The notes under the pieces were generated by a model. The model made no database searches. It had not been told where the DNA came from and saw nothing but the letters and a program-made list of their open reading frames with translations. A program made the position numbers and the translations under genes. Shown in pieces: positions 3,775 through 51,326 of a stretch of DNA of 64,000 bases. The stretch lies in NCBI GenBank assembly GCA_965230955.1, contig OZ246404.1, positions 97,184 to 161,183 of the forward strand, read 5' to 3'. Position 1 is the stretch's first letter. The number at the start of each line of letters is the position of its first letter. The stretch is from an uncultured Candidatus Saccharibacteria bacterium. GTDB taxonomy: Bacteria; Patescibacteriota; CALEFQ01.

Positions 3775-3834
3775 AAATTTTTCTTTTTGAATTTTGCACT
3801 TGCTTGCGCAAGCAAGTTATGAATTCCCAGTGGT

Positions 3835-3906
3835 CCTCGTGGCTCGACTACGCCCCTTCGGGGCTTCGTCGGGTAAACTCTATTGTCATACTCAGAAAAT
3901 TTTCGT
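3835..3906 (+). mobile_element. small insertion at tRNA-Leu 5' end: 9 nt duplicate of the tRNA 5' end (cctcgtggc) followed by a CTACG/CTTCG-box GC hairpin (3845-3871)
   Basis: cctcgtggc at 3835-3843 repeats tRNA-Leu positions 3-11; hairpin cgaCTACGcccc ttcg ggggCTTCGtcg. Confidence 0.45.
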
Positions 3907-3992
3907 GCCCTCGTGGCGGAATTGGCATACGCGGCAGCTTGAGGGGCTGTGCCCGTAAGGGCGTGTGGGTTCAAATCCCACCGAGGGCACCA
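3907..3992 (+). tRNA. tRNA-Leu(GAG), class II with long variable arm
   Basis: Acceptor GCCCTCG/CGAGGGC, anticodon stem GCAGC/GCTGT, loop TTGAGGG, variable hairpin GCCC-GTAA-GGGC, T-arm GTGGG TTCAAAT CCCAC, CCA encoded. Confidence 0.85.
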
Positions 3993-4071
3993 TGTAGCGA
4001 GAGTTAGCACTGTTTGATGTAGCCGTAGCGGGGATGGGAAGGGACGATAATGATGCACCGATCAGGTGGCT

Positions 4072-4162
4072 CCAAAGTTAAAAGTTTTAAAGATCAAAAT
4101 TCAAAACATCGGTTTTAGTATTTTAGCTTTAAACTTCCTTTGAACTTTGATTTTTAAGCTTT
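4072..4162. repeat. AT-rich imperfect palindrome between tRNA-Leu and tRNA-Val
   Basis: caaagttaaaagttttaaagatcaaaattcaaaac ... gctttaaacttcctttgaactttg. Confidence 0.55.
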
Positions 4163-4182
4163 CACACGCTGGTGTGTGATTT

Positions 4183-4259
4183 GGGCAGTTAGCTCAGTTG
4201 GTTAGAGCATCTCGTTTACACCGAGGGGGTCGGGGGTTCAAATCCCTCACTGCCCACCA
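4183..4259 (+). tRNA. tRNA-Val(TAC)
   Basis: GGGCAGT TA GCTC AGTTGGTTA GAGC A TCTCG TTTACAC CGAGG GGGTC GGGGG TTCAAAT CCCTC ACTGCCC A CCA. Confidence 0.85.
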
Positions 4260-4343
4260 AGTCAGTTCTTAGTTATTAGTTCTTAGATTTCAGGCAGGTA
4301 AAAACCTGATTTCTAAAAACTGAGATCTAAGAACTAATAAAAC

Positions 4344-4459
4344 GCCGAGGTAGCTTCCTACTACGCTTAGCTTCGCTAAGCTTCGTAGGGCAGGCAGTGC
4401 GGTTAATCTACGCTAGCGCTTTACGGGCCCAAAGCCCGACAAAGCCTTGGCGTAGGCGG
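4344..4459 (+). mobile_element. insertion at tRNA-Phe 5' end: 12 nt tRNA-Phe 5' fragment (gccgaggtagct) followed by a ~100 nt element with CTACG/CTTCG-box hairpin and a cttcgtagggcaggcagtgcggtta block
   Basis: gccgaggtagct at 4344-4355 equals tRNA-Phe positions 1-12; the element shares its ends with the tRNA-Val insert at 13995-14117. Confidence 0.5.
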
Positions 4460-4507
4460 GCCGAGGTAGCTCAGTGGTACCTGCCTGCCGGCAGGGAGCA
4501 CAGCACT
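4460..4507 (+). other. partial 5' copy of tRNA-Phe (positions 1-33, to the anticodon loop) with a 16 nt GC hairpin (cctgcctgccggcagg, 4480-4495) inserted in the D-loop
   Basis: gccgaggtagctcagtggta[cctgcctgccggcagg]gagcacagcact, identical to tRNA-Phe 4759-4791 apart from the insert. Confidence 0.6.
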
Positions 4508-4516
4508 AAAAACAAT

Positions 4517-4758
4517 ATGGAGGGATACAAAATTTATGTTCTAAAATCTGAGATCGATGGCCGTCTGTATGTGGGCCTTAGTCAAAACGTCAATAAGCGT
4601 TTGGCTGACCATAAATTTGGTAGGGTATTTGCCACTAAAGGATATAGGCCATGGAAATTAATTTATTCGGAATTTATTGGGTCGAGGAAACACGCTAGAC
4701 GGCGAGAAAAATTTCTCAAAAGTGGCTGCGGAAAAGAATATTTAAAATTTAAACTAAC

Positions 4759-4768
<10 letters not shown>
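4517..4768 (+). CDS. stand-alone GIY-YIG nuclease (YhbQ/URI-domain-like, 83 aa); its last codons and stop lie inside tRNA-Phe
   Basis: YKIYVLKS...GRLYVGLSQNVNKRLADH...REKFLKSGCG = GIY-YIG signature; ATG at 4517; TAG stop at 4766-4768 is inside the tRNA-Phe 5' end. Confidence 0.8.
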
Positions 4769-4830
<62 letters not shown>

Positions 4831-4833
<3 letters not shown>

Positions 4834-5029
4834 GACTACGCTCCGCTTCGCGGAGCTTCGTCTGGCAGGCCAGACTTTTTCCTCACTGTGAGTTTACCCG
4901 CCGTAGCCCCCGCCGAATCGGCGGGCGAAGGCGGGTCTGGCAGGCCAGATTGTTATATAGTATAATTTACCCAGCGGCGGTCCGCAGTCAGCGGGCCTGC
5001 CCGCCGTAGTCCGCCTTGGGCGGACGTAG
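4831..5029. repeat. cluster of GC-rich hairpins with CG(A/T)AG boxes between tRNA-Phe and tRNA-Gly (4831-4866, 4896-4937, 4995-5029), plus two copies of gtctggcaggccaga
   Basis: ccagaCTACGctccgc ttcg gcggagCTTCGtctgg; cccgcCGTAGccc[ccgccgaatcggcgg]gCGAAGgcggg; cccgcCGTAGtccgcc ttgg ggcggaCGTAGgcggg (the last arm overlaps the tRNA-Gly 5' end). Confidence 0.55.
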
Positions 5030-5104
<75 letters not shown>

Positions 5105-5220
5105 GCACAAAGCTGGCTTCAACAAACATAAGTGTCAGTTAACGCTGAATATACTAATTACTGGGGCTTGCCCTTCGTAGCTCGAGCGTTAGCGAGAGCG
5201 AAGTAGGGTCTCCCGCTCCA
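5105..5220 (+). mobile_element. ~100 nt insert after tRNA-Gly bounded by a 14 nt direct repeat of the tRNA 3' end (ggtctcccgctcca at 5091-5104 and 5207-5220); contains a CGTAG/CGAAG hairpin
   Basis: Direct repeat read from sequence; hairpin ccTTCGTAGctcgagcgttagcgagagCGAAGTAGg. Confidence 0.45.
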
Positions 5221-12660: not shown

Positions 12661-12853
12661 TAGTTCGTACAGTCTGATTGTTTTATTCTTGCTACCATGC
12701 GAACATTGTGTGGACCTTTCCTTTTATCGCCTGCGTTGACGCTAATGGGTTTCTAGCGTAAAATAAAAACAGCTTTGGGACATGGCCAAAGACAAAAGAC
12801 CGATGACCAAAGACTAATTTAGGGCCCATAGCTCAGTGGTTAGAGCACCCGGC

Positions 12854-13222
12854 TCAAGACAGTACCTTTAAATCTAGATCAGGATTATGAAGTTCCGCGT
12901 GGCAATTCTGGCAAACCAAACGGCATTTGGCTACCTCTTTTAGAACACTATCGAAGGTTCTATTGGAAAGTGATCTCATGTCTAATTTGAACTCTTTGCC
13001 GGAAACATGATGAAAAGTAAGCGCTGATAAGTTGCGCTTGTATCCACAGCGGGAACAGCAACCACCTCGTTGCTTAACCAAAAGCAGCTTGCGGTTTATT
13101 CCGCGCTTCTTTTGGGCGTCATATGACTGGTGCACTTTATTCTTGCACCTCGTAGAGCAATATTGGCTTTGCTGTCCGGACAATGAGTGTCCGCAAACAG
13201 AACAGTTAGACTGTTTCTTCAT
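12854..13222 (-). CDS. HNH homing-endonuclease-like protein encoded antisense within the intron (122 aa from MKKQSN)
   Basis: C..CG...C..C zinc knuckle, LTFHHVSGKEFKLDMRSLSNRTF...CRLVCQNCHAELH = HNH motif. Its stop TGA (rev-comp of 12854-12856) overlaps the 5' splice junction. The longer upstream ORF extension to 13498 looks like read-through. Confidence 0.75.
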   Translation of the reverse strand: MKKQSNCSVCGHSLSGQQSQYCSTRCKNKVHQSYDAQKKRGINRKLLLVKQRGGCCSRCGYKRNLSALTFHHVSGKEFKLDMRSLSNRTFDSVLKEVAKCRLVCQNCHAELHNPDLDLKVLS

Positions 13223-13495
13223 AAGCCAATAATAGCATCTAGAATTAATCTGTCCAGGGCAGTCGGTGGGGCAACCTGCCGATGTAACTCGCCAAATTCG
13301 GGGAACCCTTCTCCTGTAAGGGAATGGCAATCCCGAGCCAAGCTCTCCTTCGCTCCTCCCGGAGCTTCGGAGGGAAGGTGTAGAGACTGTACGACGAGCC
13401 CCCACATTCAAAATATTGATGGTGGGAGAAGAGACAGTCCAGACTACAAACCCTGTACCGTAAGGTACAGAGGCAGTGAAAACTGTAGTAGTAAG
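12855..13495 (+). ncRNA. group I intron (IC3-like, Azoarcus tRNA-Ile-type core) in the anticodon loop
   Basis: Insert follows U33 and ends in G. The 3' ~230 nt contain CAAAUUCGG, AAUGGCAAUCCCGAGCCAAGC and GAAGGUGUAGAGACU blocks recalled from the Azoarcus ribozyme, plus a GNRA hairpin ctgtacc-GTAA-ggtacag. Confidence 0.7.
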
Positions 13496-13574
13496 CATAA
13501 CCGGAGGGTCGCTGGTTCGATCCCAGCTGGGCCCACCATCCTCGCCCCCTCACTCAGGTATTTGAAAATAATTC

Positions 13575-13700
13575 CAAATCCTGAGTGAGGGGGCTCAAAA
13601 TTTAAAATCTAAAGTCCAAAGGTCAAAGAAAATCAAAACGTCGCAGTCTTTAGATTTTGAGTTTTAATTTCTTTTAGACTTCTAGCTTTTAATTTTCCGC
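13575..13700. repeat. AT-rich imperfect palindrome between tRNA(CAU) and tRNA-Arg
   Basis: aaaatttaaaatctaaagtccaaaggtcaaag ... ctttagattttgagttttaatttcttttagac. Confidence 0.55.
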
Positions 13701-13717
13701 CGTTGCGGCGGTGTCAG

Positions 13718-13794
13718 GCGCCCGTAGCTCAGCTGGATAGAGCAGCGGTTTTCTAAACCGCAGGTCGCAGGTCCGAATCCTGCCGGGCGTACCA
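13718..13794 (+). tRNA. tRNA-Arg(TCT)
   Basis: GCGCCCG TA GCTC AGCTGGATA GAGC A GCGGT TTTCTAA ACCGC AGGTC GCAGG TCCGAAT CCTGC CGGGCGT A CCA. Confidence 0.85.
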
Positions 13795-13799
13795 AGCCA

Positions 13800-13915
13800 C
13801 ACGCCCCGAACGGCCGGTGGAAATTTAAAACTCAAAGTCCAAAAATTAAATAATTTTAGTTTTTAGCTTTAAACTTCTTTTAAATTTTAGGCTTTGAATT
13901 TCGGTGCCGTTGTCT
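13800..13915. repeat. AT-rich imperfect palindrome
   Basis: aaatttaaaactcaaagtccaaaaattaaat ... ctttaaacttcttttaaattttaggctttgaattt. Confidence 0.55.
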
Positions 13916-13936
13916 GTATTTTGCCGAAACCATCGG

Positions 13937-13965
13937 TTGACAACATCGCTTAAAAATATTACACT
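13937..13965 (+). promoter_or_regulatory. sigma70-like promoter TTGACA-17-TACACT for the downstream tRNA-Val/His block
   Basis: TTGACA 13937-13942; TACACT 13960-13965. Confidence 0.45.
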
Positions 13966-13983
13966 GTCGCTTATTCCTCTGTG

Positions 13984-14117
13984 TGTGTAGCTCCCTACTA
14001 CCTGCCTACCGGCAGGCAGGCGCGCTCACTTCGTTCGCGCTTCGTAGGGCGGGCAGTGCGATTAGATGGTTTCGGTAATAAAGTTTGCGTTTTGCATTTT
14101 GAATTTTGCATTAGTCT
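13984..14117 (+). mobile_element. insertion at tRNA-Val 5' end: 11 nt duplicate gtgtgtagctc (13984-13994) + ~123 nt element (cctactac...ctgcctaccggcagg...cttcgtagggcgggcagtgcgatta...) + intact tRNA
   Basis: Duplicate equals tRNA-Val(GAC) positions 3-13. The element's start (cctactac) and internal block match the tRNA-Phe insert, and its GC mini-hairpin equals the one inserted in the partial tRNA-Phe D-loop. Confidence 0.5.
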
Positions 14118-14194
14118 GGGTGTGTAGCTCAGTTGGTTAGAGCGTTACCTCGACACGGTAAAGGTCACAGGTTCGATTCCTGTCACACCCACCA
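14118..14194 (+). tRNA. tRNA-Val(GAC)
   Basis: GGGTGTG TA GCTC AGTTGGTTA GAGC G TTACC TCGACAC GGTAA AGGTC ACAGG TTCGATT CCTGT CACACCC A CCA. Confidence 0.85.
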
Positions 14195-14214
14195 GCCTCG
14201 CTCGCGGCGCCCCG

Positions 14215-14336
14215 CGCCGCTCGCTCAAGATTAAAAATTTAAAGATAAAAATTCAAAAGAAATTCAAGATTTCAGCTTTAAATTTGTTTTAGCTTTTGCA
14301 TTTTTGATTTTAAATTTCCCGCCCATGGCGGGTCAT
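14215..14336. repeat. AT-rich imperfect palindrome ending in GC mini-hairpin cccgcccatggcggg
   Basis: caagattaaaaatttaaagataaaaattcaaaag ... cttttgcatttttgattttaaattt. Confidence 0.55.
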
Positions 14337-14389
14337 GGTGACTGTAGCTCAGTTGGTTAGCCCGCCGAATCGGCGGGGGCGGGTTGTGG
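14337..14389 (+). other. partial 5' copy of tRNA-His (to anticodon loop position ~37) with 17 nt GC hairpin cccgccgaatcggcggg replacing part of the D-arm
   Basis: ggtgactgtagctcagttggttag[cccgccgaatcggcggg]ggcgggttgtgg versus the intact tRNA-His at 14670. Confidence 0.6.
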
Positions 14390-14415
14390 ATCCGGAGTAA
14401 TTAAGAGGAGGGGAT

Positions 14416-14704
14416 ATGTATTACGTATATATTTTACAGAGTCTAAAAGACGGGAAATTATATTACGGAATGACATCCGGCTTGACTCGTAGATTCTGGC
14501 AACATTGCTTTGGACTAAATAAGTCTACTAGCAGTCGTCGTCCTTTGCATTGATTTATTATGAAGCTTATTTATGTAATGAGGATGCCAGGATTAGAGAA
14601 AGATTTCTTAAAAGCGGTCGAGGACGTGAGGTAATCAGAAAGCATTTAAAAATCTTCTTTGGTTCATGTGGTGACTGTAGCTCAGTTGGTTAGAGCGGCG
14701 GGTT
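14416..14704 (+). pseudogene. decayed GIY-YIG nuclease gene (in-frame TGA at 14551, then a frameshift; C-terminal fragment reads into tRNA-His)
   Basis: MYYVYILQSLKDGKLYYGMTSGLTRRFWQH...RRPLH* then, in another frame, NEDARIREKFLKSGRGREVIRKHLKI; homologous to the 4517-4768 GIY-YIG. TGA is a genuine stop elsewhere in the window (e.g. the lspA and comM ends). Confidence 0.6.
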
Positions 14705-14747
14705 GTGGTCCCGCAGGTCGTGGGTTCAACTCCCACCAGTCACCCCA
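14670..14747 (+). tRNA. tRNA-His(GTG) with genomically encoded G-1
   Basis: g GTGACTG TA GCTC AGTTGGTTA GAGC G GCGGG TTGTGGT CCCGC AGGTC GTGGG TTCAACT CCCAC CAGTCAC C CCA; the extra 5' G pairs with discriminator C. Confidence 0.85.
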
Positions 14748-14756
14748 GAACAAAAT

Positions 14757-14789
14757 ATCGCCCCTTCGATAAACTCAGGGCGATTTTTT
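14757..14789 (+). terminator. intrinsic terminator after the tRNA cluster
   Basis: atcgcccc ttcgataaactca gggcgat tttttg. Confidence 0.6.
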
Positions 14790-15028
14790 GTAAATTCAAA
14801 GTCTAAAATTTAAATATCAAAGGAAACTAAAAATTTAAATAAAAAAATTCGCTACCGGGTAGGATTTTTGAAAAAAAAGATGTCAAAATACAAACCTGGG
14901 GTTTTACCAAAATTCTTTTCTTGACATGAATGACTTTTCCTGTTATTTTACGGAGTCCATTGTTTTGTCTGGGAAACAATAGATCCCTGAACATGATAAT
15001 GTCAGGGATAGAAAGGGAGGGTATTTTT

Positions 15029-30855: not shown

Positions 30856-30896
30856 CCGATTAGCCCGCCGATTCGGCGGGGTTTTTTATAAAAAAG
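30856..30896 (+). terminator. GC hairpin (cccgccgattagcccgccgattcggcggg) + T-run; on the other strand a second hairpin (atcccgataaaag...cttttatcgggat) terminates the 30930 gene
   Basis: Hairpins and T-runs read from sequence. Confidence 0.55.
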
Positions 30897-46629: not shown

Positions 46630-46865
46630 TCATCGACGGCCTTTGACCTAGCTCTAGCCCAATGCGAGTACAATAGCGATCAAAAAAGTCTTAAAATAAG
46701 GGTTTGTTGTCCACAGGGGAGGAAAAGTCTTTAGTCTTTGGTCTATTGTCTTTAGACTCGTACTTAGGCCGGTGCTGTAGTTATCTCCCAAGTATCAATC
46801 TAGGGCGGCTATAGACTATAGACTAAAGACTTTTTCTAAAACGAAAACCCCCCTGTCCGCCGTCT

Positions 46866-46912
46866 GCCGAATCGGCAGAGGCGGACACGAGGGGGTTATC
46901 GTTATCTAATCG
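46866..46912 (-). terminator. GC hairpin (gtccgccgtctgccgaatcggcagaggcggac) + T-run on the minus strand, terminator of the 46913 gene
   Basis: Hairpin shares the ccgaatcgg loop with other GC mini-hairpins in the window. Confidence 0.5.
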
Positions 46913-49067: not shown

Positions 49068-51326
49068 ATGACCCTGATATTAGACAAGCTGAATACCGCC
49101 CAACGGCAAGCCGTGACAACAGTTGACGGCCCTGTTTTAATTTTAGCCGGCGCCGGTTCGGGTAAAACCAGAGCGTTGACGCATCGGATTGCTTTTTTGA
49201 TCGGGGAGAAGCAAATCGCTCCTTATAATCTTTTGGCGGTGACCTTTACCAATAAGGCGGCAGGTGAGATGAAGGAACGGGTAAAACAATTGCTCGGTAG
49301 CACCGCCCGGGGAGTGCCCACGATCGGCACTTTTCATTCGGTCTGTGTGCGGATCCTGCGCCAGGAAATCGAAGTCCTCGGCTTCAAACGGCAGTTTGTC
49401 ATTTACGACGACTCGGATACGCTGGCCGCGATAAAAAAATCCTTGCTTGATCTGGAGCTTGATCCCAAGGAGTTCAATCCCCGCGCGGTGCGGGAGCTTA
49501 TCTCTTCGGCTAAAAACGAGCTGGTGACGCCACAGCAATACGAAGAAACCGCCTCCGGACTGATTCAAGAGACGGCGGCACGCGTGTATTTCCGCTATCA
49601 AAAATTTCTAAAAGACAGTAATGCGCTGGATTTTGATGATTTGCTGATGAAAACAGTGGAACTTTTCCAAAAATTTCCGGAACTGCTGGAAAAATATCGC
49701 CGCCACTGGCGCTATATTTTGGTTGACGAATACCAAGATACCAATAAATCCCAATATGTTTTCGTGAATCTGCTGGCGCAAAAACATAAAAATCTTTGCG
49801 TCGTCGGCGACGACTGGCAATCGATTTATAGCTGGCGTGGAGCCGACATCCGAAATATCTTGGAATTTGAAAAAGATTATCCGGAAGCCAAGGTGGTGAT
49901 GCTGGAACAAAACTATCGTTCCACTAAAAATATTTTGCGTGCGGCGCAGGAGGTGATCGCGGCCAACGTGAACAAAAAAGACAAAAACCTCTGGACGGAA
50001 AACGAGGCCGGCGATCCGGTGCGACTCTATGAGGCGTCGGATGAGCGCGATGAGGCGCGTTATATCATCGATAAAATGCGGGAATATCGGCGCCTGGGAC
50101 ACGCCAACCGGTCGATGGCCGTGCTCTATCGGACCAATGCCCAATCGCGCGTTTTGGAAGAAGCGCTGTTGCGCGCGGCTATTCCATATAACATTGTCGG
50201 CGCTCTGAAATTTTATCAGCGCAAAGAGATAAAGGATATTTTGGCTTATTTGCGCCTGGTGGCCGGCGGAAATGATTTTATTTCTTTTTCCCGGATTATT
50301 AATGAGCCCAGCCGCGGCGTGGGCGAAAAAACTTTGGCCAAAATCGATCAGCTGGCCGAAGCGCAAGGATTGGCGCCGGCGATCAAAAAAATCGTCGGCA
50401 GCCAGGAAATATCGTCCGGTGACGGTTCGGTGCCGTGGCGTTTGCCGCCTCGGGCGAGAGCCGGGTTGACCGATTTGCAAAATTTATTTGATCAAGCTCG
50501 GAAGTATTTGGCCGACCATACTATCGGGGAGTTGATCGATCATGTGGCGGTATCGTCCGGGTACAAAAAGATGATTCTGGATGGAACTGAGGAAGGAGAG
50601 GCGCGGTGGGAAAACATTCAGGAACTAAAAAGCGTGGCCGGCAAGTATGATGCTTCGCGCGGAGCCGAGTCTTTGGAAAAATTTTTAGAAGAAGTGGCTT
50701 TGGTCCAAGAGCTTGATCGCCTGGATGAATCGACCGATGCCGTCACGCTAATGACGGTGCATTCGGCCAAAGGACTGGAGTATCCGCTGGTTTTCATAAT
50801 CGGACTGGAAGAAGGACTGTTTCCCCATGCGCGCAGTTATCTAGACCCCTCGGCGCTGGAAGAAGAGCGCCGGCTGTGCTACGTGGGTATGACGCGGGCC
50901 AAACAACGTTTATTTTTATCGTATGCCGTTTCGCGAAAAATCTACGGTTCGGTGCAATTCAATTTGCCGTCGCAATTTTTGGAAATTACCAATTTGGAAA
51001 GAGAGCCCTCGGCCCTTCGACCAGCTCAGGGCTCAGTCTGGGGTTCTTCGGGAACCTCAAGCTTTGGCCATTCGGCGACCTCAGATCGGAGTCACTCGGA
51101 AAAATATTCGGGCACTTCATTTGATGATATATCGACTCCGGATCGCTCAGCTGACCGCCGATTCGGCGGGGAGGAATTCTCGGAGTTTTCTTCTTCGAGC
51201 TCCGGTACGACGAAAAATAAAAAACCGCGTCAGCGCCCTTCGAAAAGCTCAGGGCGGAGCGGGGGAATTTTGGATCAGATTATTGAGGAAAAGGGAGGAA
51301 TGAGGTATGAGCAGGTGGACGAGTGA
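49068..51326 (+). CDS. pcrA: UvrD/PcrA-family ATP-dependent DNA helicase with acidic/Ser-rich C-terminal tail
   Basis: LNTAQRQAVTTVDGPVLILAGAGSGKTRALTHRIAFL; TFTNKAAGEM; YRST; VLYRTNAQSR; GLEYPLVFI. Confidence 0.9.
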   Translation: MTLILDKLNTAQRQAVTTVDGPVLILAGAGSGKTRALTHRIAFLIGEKQIAPYNLLAVTFTNKAAGEMKERVKQLLGSTARGVPTIGTFHSVCVRILRQEIEVLGFKRQFVIYDDSDTLAAIKKSLLDLELDPKEFNPRAVRELISSAKNELVTPQQYEETASGLIQETAARVYFRYQKFLKDSNALDFDDLLMKTVELFQKFPELLEKYRRHWRYILVDEYQDTNKSQYVFVNLLAQKHKNLCVVGDDWQSIYSWRGADIRNILEFEKDYPEAKVVMLEQNYRSTKNILRAAQEVIAANVNKKDKNLWTENEAGDPVRLYEASDERDEARYIIDKMREYRRLGHANRSMAVLYRTNAQSRVLEEALLRAAIPYNIVGALKFYQRKEIKDILAYLRLVAGGNDFISFSRIINEPSRGVGEKTLAKIDQLAEAQGLAPAIKKIVGSQEISSGDGSVPWRLPPRARAGLTDLQNLFDQARKYLADHTIGELIDHVAVSSGYKKMILDGTEEGEARWENIQELKSVAGKYDASRGAESLEKFLEEVALVQELDRLDESTDAVTLMTVHSAKGLEYPLVFIIGLEEGLFPHARSYLDPSALEEERRLCYVGMTRAKQRLFLSYAVSRKIYGSVQFNLPSQFLEITNLEREPSALRPAQGSVWGSSGTSSFGHSATSDRSHSEKYSGTSFDDISTPDRSADRRFGGEEFSEFSSSSSGTTKNKKPRQRPSKSSGRSGGILDQIIEEKGGMRYEQVDE

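Follow-up and report, generated by a model that had tools for sequence, protein, structure and literature searches.

Here, we examine a compact arrangement at the tRNA-His gene of an uncultured Candidatus Saccharibacteria bacterium, located in a 64,000-nucleotide stretch of contig OZ246404.1 (positions 97,184 to 161,183) that we call the window. At this site, a partial, degenerate 5′ copy of tRNA-His that carries a perfect palindrome is followed by an open reading frame (ORF) homologous to GIY-YIG nucleases, and the ORF runs into a complete tRNA-His gene. Our preferred reading, to which we assign a probability of about 60%, is that the arrangement is a tRNA-nested, nuclease-encoding selfish cassette that has lately been inactivated here. 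We demonstrate its anatomy, its nesting in the tRNA with a compensating duplication, the clade-specific palindromes, past purifying selection, and present truncation; mobility we infer from the distribution of related sequences. The window copy is an ordinary decayed member, and the family behind it is the interesting part.

Anatomy and decay of the tRNA-His cassette

The cassette as a whole occupies roughly 330 bp, and its tRNA repeats enclose only about 280 bp (Table 1). Because a native-leader hairpin precedes the degenerate tRNA copy, that copy appears to sit at the original position of the tRNA gene. An equivalent hairpin lies at the same place in a close relative (L001; loci are designated by L numbers), and similar ones lie 5′ of other tRNA genes in the window. 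A mere 18 nt separate the degenerate fragment from the ATG, and this spacer, with its Shine-Dalgarno (SD) sequence, is conserved in the close relatives L001 and L003 and retains recognizable homology in L088, a locus of the mirror arrangement defined below as type B. At its other end, the ORF stops 23 nt inside tRNA-His. The tRNA itself is identical to that of L001 at 77 of 77 positions. The architecture is real and no assembly artifact because three other assemblies share it: the Logan contigs L001 and L002 and L003, a GenBank metagenome-assembled genome (CALEFQ010000032.1).

A preliminary description of this DNA, made from the letters alone, reported a GC mini-hairpin in the D-arm of the partial copy, a ribosome-binding site, an ORF homologous to one linked to tRNA-Phe, and a C-terminal ORF fragment reading into the intact tRNA-His with its encoded G-1, and all of these are borne out. 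The same description ended the partial copy (14337-14389) in the anticodon loop. Identity to the tRNA does end there, with 14378-14389 reproducing tRNA-His positions 27-38, but the orthologous copies run to about position 46, in the variable region. Specifically, in L001 and L003 all 20 nt of this second part match their own tRNA, while the window carries 3 substitutions at 14390-14397. If single-stranded, the palindrome could form a 7-bp stem with a 3-nt loop. The degenerate copy and its palindrome match no known RNA family and have an ordinary folding energy (z = -0.7 to -1.6), and a promoter and terminator scan of the cassette surroundings gave nothing informative.

The encoded protein is predicted to be a stand-alone, minimal GIY-YIG domain of the Slx1/UPF0213 type and not a homing enzyme of the I-TevI type. 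Its sole Pfam match is PF01541, which scores 48.0 bits (E 1.6e-12) for the frame-corrected His-linked ORF and 51.5 bits (E 1.3e-13) for the ORF linked to tRNA-Phe, against a cut-off of 22.6; the two align without gaps at 42% identity (E 4e-18). The ORFs have 84-92 amino acids (aa), most homologs have 80-100 aa, and the catalytic domain fills the entire ORF, leaving no room for a C-terminal DNA-binding module. The family-invariant residues Y5, Y16, G18, H30, E50, and E62 and the near-invariant R26 are all present in the window sequence across both frames. A profile of 39 family members, compared with the PDB, finds only UPF0213 proteins (1zg2, E 1.4e-11; 1ywl, E 6.2e-09) and SLX1 chains. Models of intron and homing endonucleases stay below threshold (TIGR01453, for group I intron endonucleases, 17.8 bits against a cut-off of 56 with the Phe-linked ORF), the His-linked ORF has no NCBIfam match, and a match to phrog_314 covers residues 1-41 only.

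In the window, this gene is interrupted. An uninterrupted 92-aa ortholog (P0001), 94% identical, is encoded on L001 and L002, and L003 holds a 93% match; all three share the order tRNA-Val, spacer, degenerate His copy with the same palindrome, SD, ORF, tRNA-His. Where these relatives read ‘tttgcgattg’, the window reads ‘tttgc-attg’, with one G missing. The deletion of that single G produces both the frame shift and the TGA at 14551-14553; thus, the in-frame stop and the frameshift that had been described separately both exist but constitute one lesion. The earlier pseudogene call is reasonable because translation stops after 45 aa, short of the invariant E50 and E62, and because intact orthologs exist. 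The lesion is either recent or an assembly error, and a single-base deletion could still be the latter. Proteins of the window also turn up in Logan runs SRR10083293 and SRR10083294, which are thus candidates for the source data.

The window uses the standard genetic code. Under table 11, ORFs of 200 aa or more cover 74% of the window, 12 of these 45 end in TGA, and 7 TGA-terminated ORFs of at least 250 aa would gain only 13-168 aa if TGA were read as sense. The preliminary description rightly set UGA recoding aside, but its supposition that a sense UGA would make the gene intact does not hold: the downstream homology lies in the other frame, so reading TGA as sense provides no rescue.

Codon comparisons indicate that the ORF was under purifying selection until recently. 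Window and L001 differ by 12 synonymous and 6 nonsynonymous codons, with 11 of the 18 substitutions at third positions, and the changes on the window branch number 7 synonymous and 4 nonsynonymous. Nucleotide identity between window and L001 is about 93.5% in the ORF and 81% in the downstream flank, and the spacer between tRNA-Val and the cassette (142 nt in the window, 122 nt in L001) has only 98 matching positions.

Table 1. Features of the tRNA-His cassette, of the sister cassette at tRNA-Phe, and of further palindrome copies in the window
Feature	Position	Strand	Details
Native-leader GC hairpin	14318-14332	+	cccgcccatggcggg; read directly; just 5′ of the degenerate tRNA-His copy
Degenerate tRNA-His copy, part 1	14337-14360	+	G-1 and positions 1-23 (acceptor 5′ strand, D-stem 5′ strand, D-loop); 24 nt identical to 14670-14693
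Perfect 17-bp palindrome	14361-14377		cccgccgaatcggcggg = CCCGCCGA-A-TCGGCGGG; 8-bp arms, one central base; replaces ‘agc’ of the D-stem
Degenerate tRNA-His copy, part 2	14378-14397	+	Anticodon arm, reaching about position 46; the final 8 nt have diverged and read atccggag instead of tcccgcag
Spacer with Shine-Dalgarno sequence	14398-14415	+	aagaggagggg at 14403-14413
GIY-YIG ORF, N-terminal 45 codons	14416-14553	+	ATG at 14416; TGA at 14551-14553 made by the frame shift; keeps Y5, Y16, G18, R26, H30
Single-nucleotide deletion site	14548-14549	+	Orthologs carry a G here; codon-level comparison with L001 and L003; no homopolymer run
GIY-YIG ORF, C-terminal 47 codons	14550-14693	+	-1 frame; holds invariant E50 and E62; stop TAG at 14691-14693 in the tRNA D-loop
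Intact tRNA-His (GUG)	14670-14747	+	Encoded G-1 and CCA; ARAGORN 14671-14747, G-1 at 14670; Rfam RF00005, 69.6 bits
tRNA-Phe cassette, upstream part	4460-4507	+	Degenerate copy positions 1-20 (4460-4479), palindrome CCTGCCTGCCGGCAGG (4480-4495), positions 21-33 (4496-4507)
tRNA-Phe cassette, downstream part	4517-4833	+	Intact 83-aa GIY-YIG ORF (4517-4768) runs into intact tRNA-Phe (4759-4833)
Further CCGANTCGG-core copies (15-17 bp)	4909-4925; 30864-30880; 46863-46879; 51155-51169		46863-46879 is a variant

A family of cassettes at tRNA genes

The proposal that the His- and Phe-linked ORFs belong to an element family at tRNA genes is supported by 165 classified loci (80 from species-representative genomes, 80 from metagenomes, and several found by exact protein look-up), with mobility as the inferred component. 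In type A, a degenerate 5′ copy precedes the ORF, which enters, or ends at most 40 nt from, an intact tRNA on the same strand. Type B is the mirror image: intact tRNA, ORF, and degenerate 3′ copy, with the ORF starting at most 40 nt after the tRNA. Counted by the position of the ORF next to the intact tRNA, 20 of the 165 loci belong to type A and 8 to type B. A further 33 loci have a same-strand tRNA within 300 nt that is not adjacent. Of the 28 adjacent loci, 22 carry a duplicated piece of their tRNA across the ORF from the intact gene, and 13 tRNA species are occupied (His, Lys, Phe, Pro, Met, Cys, Trp, Gly, Arg, Asp, Gln, Val, and Thr). Type B is clearest in L005, L013, L008, and L020, where the ATG directly follows the tRNA and the ORF runs into ‘TAGCTCAG’ of the degenerate downstream copy, and in L016, L028, and L083 a second degenerate copy lies past the intact tRNA. 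The ORFs overlap tRNAs, often with no stop codon or SD of their own, several copies can share one tRNA cluster, and decayed copies recur (window, L008, L013, and L059). The family is widespread in bacteria of the candidate phyla radiation (CPR), and it is cellular: among 2.9 million viral contigs, only 4 distant relatives were found.

Some individual loci deserve mention. The type B start codons lie 0-2 nt after the tRNA 3′ end (L005 1500-1503, L013 1500-1503, L008 227-232, and L020 1494-1499), which leaves no room for an SD; the mRNA could be freed by tRNA 3′ processing, start at or beside the AUG, and be translated leaderless. In the tRNA-Lys-linked ORFs of L013 (1705-1707) and L008 (431-433), in-frame TGAs replace Arg and Gly at adjacent positions of the KSGRG motif, and they look like independent nonsense mutations and not recoding. 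In L171 (876-1303), a phage-type integrase gene lies directly 3′ of a tRNA-Arg that bears a GIY-YIG cassette and two tandem degenerate 5′ copies; this one tRNA apparently serves two kinds of element.

Each of three ORF clades carries its own palindrome type across different tRNAs, so palindrome type tracks ORF lineage and not tRNA identity. The clade of the window’s His-linked ORF sits at tRNA-His, tRNA-Phe, and tRNA-Lys in both arrangements, nearly always with a palindrome of the CCGANTCGG core inside the degenerate copy; at these three tRNAs, the core palindrome adjoins the ORF in 13 related loci. A second clade carries CCCCGCAGCKGCGGGG at tRNA-Cys and tRNA-Trp (L028, L054, and L109). The third, clade III, carries CCTGCCTGCCGGCAGG(CAGG) at the junction of D-loop and D-stem of tRNA-Phe (window 4480-4495), tRNA-Arg (L171), and tRNA-Asn (L173 and L174). 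Across 369 kb of loci, 16 of 23 occurrences of the CCGANTCGG core lie within 150 nt of the GIY-YIG ORF, and the window contains 4 sites of the core pattern versus 0.10 expected. Arm length is bimodal. Over loci and window, the arms measure exactly 8 bp in 22 of 36 core occurrences, forming 17-bp perfect palindromes whose central base takes all four values, and the stems show paired G:C to T:A changes. Cassettes also exist that have no palindrome (L129 and L142) or unrelated hairpins (L008 and L088), and in L016, L028, and L083 palindromes stand on both sides of the tRNA or ORF. The palindrome could be a symmetric binding or cleavage site of an oligomeric nuclease, a heterology that blocks cassette deletion, or an independent insertion resembling a GC cluster. 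A derivation from the local anticodon stem, to which the palindrome is similar in the window, fails in L004 and L005 and was dropped.

The preliminary description also placed a free-standing copy of the 17-mer at 4907-4923; the copy is present, but at 4909-4925. Of the further core copies in the window, one is contained in a second, duplicated version of the tRNA-Gly leader hairpin, another caps a long intergenic hairpin, and a third falls within the C-terminal tail of a UvrD-like ORF. The copy at 30864-30880, 57 nt past tRNA-Lys, is followed by a T-run and is terminator-like. In addition, CCTGCCTACCGGCAGGCAGG, at about 14001-14020 in the spacer between tRNA-Arg and tRNA-Val, stands free with no adjoining ORF; a single base distinguishes it from the 20-bp palindrome that clade III carries in L171, the 16-bp form of which marks the tRNA-Phe cassette.

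Several comparisons bear on mobility. Relative to the window ORF, Phe-linked ORFs of related loci are 67-68% identical and other His-linked ORFs 62-68%. At the tRNA-His gene of L088, the mirror arrangement includes an ORF whose identity to the window ORF is about 79% in a global alignment and 76% by BLASTP; the spacer and SD there are homologous too. The tail of this ORF keeps ‘gtgactg’, the window-type tRNA-His 5′ strand, which pairs with neither local 3′ strand. Such a tail is compatible with a transfer that brought along a piece of the donor tRNA, and equally with an old fossil. Presence and absence of a copy can also differ among close relatives. After tRNA-Val and ahead of the degenerate tRNA-His copy, L003 carries an additional, divergent GIY-YIG ORF (1133-1372) with GC hairpins on both sides; in the window and in L001, this stretch is an AT-rich spacer. 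One candidate route, single-crossover integration of a circular ‘ORF plus pseudo-tRNA’, would yield both types A and B, but it fails on moves between tRNA species and on local repeat identity; we keep it as a partial idea.

Within the window, the cassette at tRNA-Phe is the only other one, as tblastn across the 64,000 nt found no GIY-YIG copies beyond the His- and Phe-linked pair. No other protein from the window’s contig, which measures 1,136,458 bp, was among the matches listed in two homolog searches (for the first, the best 120 of 464), and an exact-protein look-up of the Phe-linked ORF gave no match. The true start of the Phe-linked ORF is uncertain: no SD precedes the ATG at 4517, and a GGAGGG lies just within the ORF, 7 nt ahead of an in-frame ATT at 4532. 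Some 115 nt before the degenerate copy of this cassette, a 12-nt fragment of the tRNA-Phe 5′ end (4344-4355) is followed by an imperfect GC hairpin, and a fragment-plus-hairpin of the same kind occurs in L003 (640-690). Related hairpins of the form ‘TACGC..TTCG..CTTCGT..GGCAGGC’ recur 3′ of tRNA-Phe (4836-4875). About 100 nt downstream of tRNA-Gly, with no ORF in between, lies a 14-nt copy of that tRNA’s 3′ end (5207-5220). This copy resembles the short 3′ repeats beside the type B cassettes of L010 and L036 and may be the footprint of a lost cassette.

A further tRNA gene of the window is interrupted in another manner. At 12823-13538, an insertion of about 635 nt separates U33 from C34 of a tRNA-Met(CAU) gene that ARAGORN misses. 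The insertion contains an Rfam group I intron match (13194-13470; 48.8 bits against a gathering score of 50; E 2.9e-11) and a 214-aa ORF on the minus strand that has no Pfam match. In L003 (407-482), the ortholog is uninterrupted. Group I introns have been described in tRNAs of Patescibacteria (bioRxiv 10.1101/2025.07.03.662931).

Selfish cassette or other explanations

We picture the selfish cassette as operating in the following way. The nuclease would cause breaks at or near tRNA genes, and recombination, using tRNA sequence as homology, would copy the cassette in. Insertion into an essential gene would be survivable only when a partial duplication restores one complete tRNA, and the ORF would then be transcribed along with that tRNA. 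The palindrome would move with the ORF, serving either as the cognate site of the nuclease or as a heterology that prevents recombination between the repeats from removing the cassette. Copies would later decay, as the window copy did.

A number of points weigh against this selfish reading. If the recognition site lay wholly in the tRNA, the intact copy beside the ORF would still be a target; therefore, the target would have to include flanking sequence or DNA structure, or else the enzyme would be no site-specific homing enzyme. Sequence-specific homing is also hard to picture for an enzyme of about 85 aa with no DNA-binding domain, and the nuclease activity and target of family members are predictions. 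A 2006 survey of GIY-YIG proteins describes the minimal Slx1/UPF0213 branch as mostly vertically inherited and outside the selfish lineages, and it regards a role in repair as possible for the Slx1-like family; it traces the selfish enzymes, of both the homing and the restriction kind, to another, UvrC-like lineage (PMC1564403). Purifying selection would also be expected for a useful host gene. The distribution contributes further difficulties: 104 of the 165 loci, mostly from non-CPR lineages, have no same-strand tRNA within 300 nt, and no empty tRNA-His site was found among the four close relatives (window, L001, L002, and L003), all of which carry the cassette. Likewise, the degenerate copy matches the local tRNA in every locus, which also fits old vertical inheritance with local duplication, and the palindrome is not exclusive to cassettes, as it also occurs in terminator-like and intergenic hairpins of the window.

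One rival explanation is a domesticated host gene. Its Slx1-like nuclease would serve the cell, for example in the repair or stabilization of highly transcribed tRNA loci, would be inherited vertically, and would lie in tRNA operons purely for co-expression, the tRNA copies being by-products of local duplication. Such a gene would account for the purifying selection, for a His-linked arrangement conserved across divergent CPR lineages, and for degenerate copies that are always like the local tRNA; it also agrees with the classification of the family as non-selfish and mostly vertical (PMC1564403) and has a parallel in the maintenance of rDNA repeats by yeast Slx1 (cited in PMC1564403). We nonetheless regard domestication as unlikely. 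Occupancy is patchy and ORF relatedness is independent of the tRNA occupied, a single ORF clade appears in two mirror arrangements, and an extra copy is present or absent between close relatives. Moreover, nonsense or frameshifted copies recur (window, L008, and L013), one tRNA cluster can hold multiple copies, and ORFs that overlap tRNAs often have neither stop nor SD. A different possibility puts the palindrome at the center. In this explanation, mobile or recombinogenic GC palindromes would be bound, cut, or spread by the GIY-YIG protein, analogous to repetitive extragenic palindromes (REPs) and REP-associated tyrosine transposases (RAYTs), and tRNA genes would merely be tolerant sites. In its favor, each ORF clade has its own palindrome, and the fixed 17-bp size, perfect to one central base, looks less like an RNA loop than like a symmetric site in double-stranded DNA. 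The window holds five CCGANTCGG-type copies and the near-copy of the clade III palindrome, palindromes flank the tRNA or ORF on both sides in three loci, and the GIY-YIG restriction enzymes Cfr42I, Eco29kI, and Hpy188I are reported to recognize short palindromes as oligomers. We doubt this explanation: several cassettes do without the palindrome or have unrelated hairpins, some free palindromes are, by their look, ordinary terminator tips (30864-30880 and its T-run), and transposition of the palindrome is conjecture.

The claim of inactivation has its own competitor, namely that the gene is not broken and that the window copy is functional like its orthologs, the interruption reflecting an assembly or sequencing error or programmed frameshifting. 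In its favor, the lesion is single, the two frames together preserve every catalytic and invariant residue, and substitutions in the window lineage are still biased toward synonymous changes, 7 to 4. The deletion, however, falls outside any homopolymer, and no slippery heptamer exists at ‘cct ttg cat tga’. Two overlapping ORF pairs checked in the window offer no parallel, one being separate intact genes (a DksA-type zinc-finger protein and lspA) and the other lacking a Pfam match, and in the degenerate tRNA copy next to the ORF, 3 of 8 nt have been substituted relative to the orthologs, suggesting relaxed constraint. We judge an intact gene improbable. Far less plausible still is an origin in a known kind of tRNA-associated element, as what is left of a group I intron and its homing endonuclease or of the att duplication of an integrase island. 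tRNA genes are classic targets of both kinds, the neighboring tRNA-Met carries a group I intron, and L171 has an integrase gene beside its tRNA. Against the intron, Intron_gpI has no match even at E<=1 in 13600-14900 or 3800-5200, the regions of the two cassettes; only 18 nt lie between tRNA fragment and ATG, the ORF ends inside the tRNA, and a complete tRNA stands downstream instead of a 3′ exon. Against the island, no integrase ORF lies between the repeats, which flank just about 280 bp. Moreover, integrase islands duplicate the 3′ part of a tRNA, whereas here the 5′ part is duplicated. We rejected both candidates.

The selfish-cassette reading can be extended, and we offer the extension tentatively, as possible but not probable: Slx1-like GIY-YIG nucleases and their clade-specific 16-20-bp GC palindromes could constitute an unrecognized class of CPR mobile element that is neither intron, insertion sequence, nor integrase island. 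Members of such a class would insert with a self-repairing partial tRNA duplication, perhaps recognizing tRNA genes via DNA structure rather than sequence, and the palindrome would be the nuclease’s own site. Expression would proceed via tRNA processing; type B would produce a leaderless mRNA, and type A would lose its stop codon to RNase P.

Significance and relation to known systems

If the selfish reading is correct, the simplest known GIY-YIG nucleases, from a branch regarded as housekeeping, would be selfish cassettes in the most reduced bacterial genomes, where they would occupy essential single-copy tRNA genes by regenerating the gene through partial duplication. Such cassettes would explain many annotations of ‘GIY-YIG nuclease family protein’ near CPR tRNAs, as well as the stray tRNA fragments and pseudo-tRNAs that confuse annotation. 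They would also offer a compact, testable system consisting of an 85-aa enzyme, a 17-bp palindrome, and a tRNA gene, in which the question is how a target is found without a DNA-binding domain. Finally, they would link to recent phage work on a GIY-YIG enzyme that remodels tRNA loci.

Known systems share parts of this design. In tyrosine-integrase islands with attL and attR sites, a duplicated tRNA segment likewise restores the gene and renders insertion harmless. Here, by contrast, there is no integrase, the cargo is about 280 bp, type A duplicates the 5′ end, the A and B forms mirror each other, and the spare copy holds a palindrome. With REP/RAYT systems, the family appears to have in common short GC-rich palindromes dispersed in AT-rich spacers and a nuclease clade paired with its own palindrome type. 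RAYTs are HUH/Y1 transposases, whereas the window protein is a GIY-YIG domain. Short GC-rich palindromes in AT-rich spacers are also a feature of the mobile GC clusters of yeast mitochondrial DNA.

Among proteins, those of the UPF0213 family (YhbQ type; PDB 1zg2 and 1ywl) are the best sequence matches of solved structure, with the same size and a single domain. Those proteins are housekeeping or repair candidates and mostly vertical (PMC1564403), and our literature search found no report of their nesting in tRNA genes with target duplications. In the same host group, GIY-YIG ORFs occur in non-intron insertions of CPR rRNA genes, again within a stable-RNA gene and with no recognizable ribozyme; the passages of that report that were searched mention no compensating target duplication or palindrome (PMC11270868).

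The phage enzyme SegB, a free-standing GIY-YIG homing endonuclease, reportedly is a much longer protein with a DNA-binding region and is phage-borne. Its gene nevertheless resembles the present ones in lying among tRNA genes, in the cluster of T-even phages, and in being co-localized with many tRNA isotypes. SegB cuts within tRNA-containing sequences, and recombination occurs between a tRNA 5′ region and the segB 3′ end (PMC13096335), a precedent for the mechanism pictured above. Differences are evident as well: the window family is cellular, consists of an 85-92-aa catalytic domain from the Slx1/UPF0213 branch, and has ORFs physically fused to the tRNA gene beside a degenerate, palindrome-bearing tRNA copy. 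A full-text literature search yielded no description of tRNA-nested GIY-YIG cassettes. By analogy, phage SegB appears to be the closest counterpart, and none of the systems compared here combines a domain-only Slx1-like nuclease, a self-repairing tRNA duplication, and a palindrome particular to its clade.

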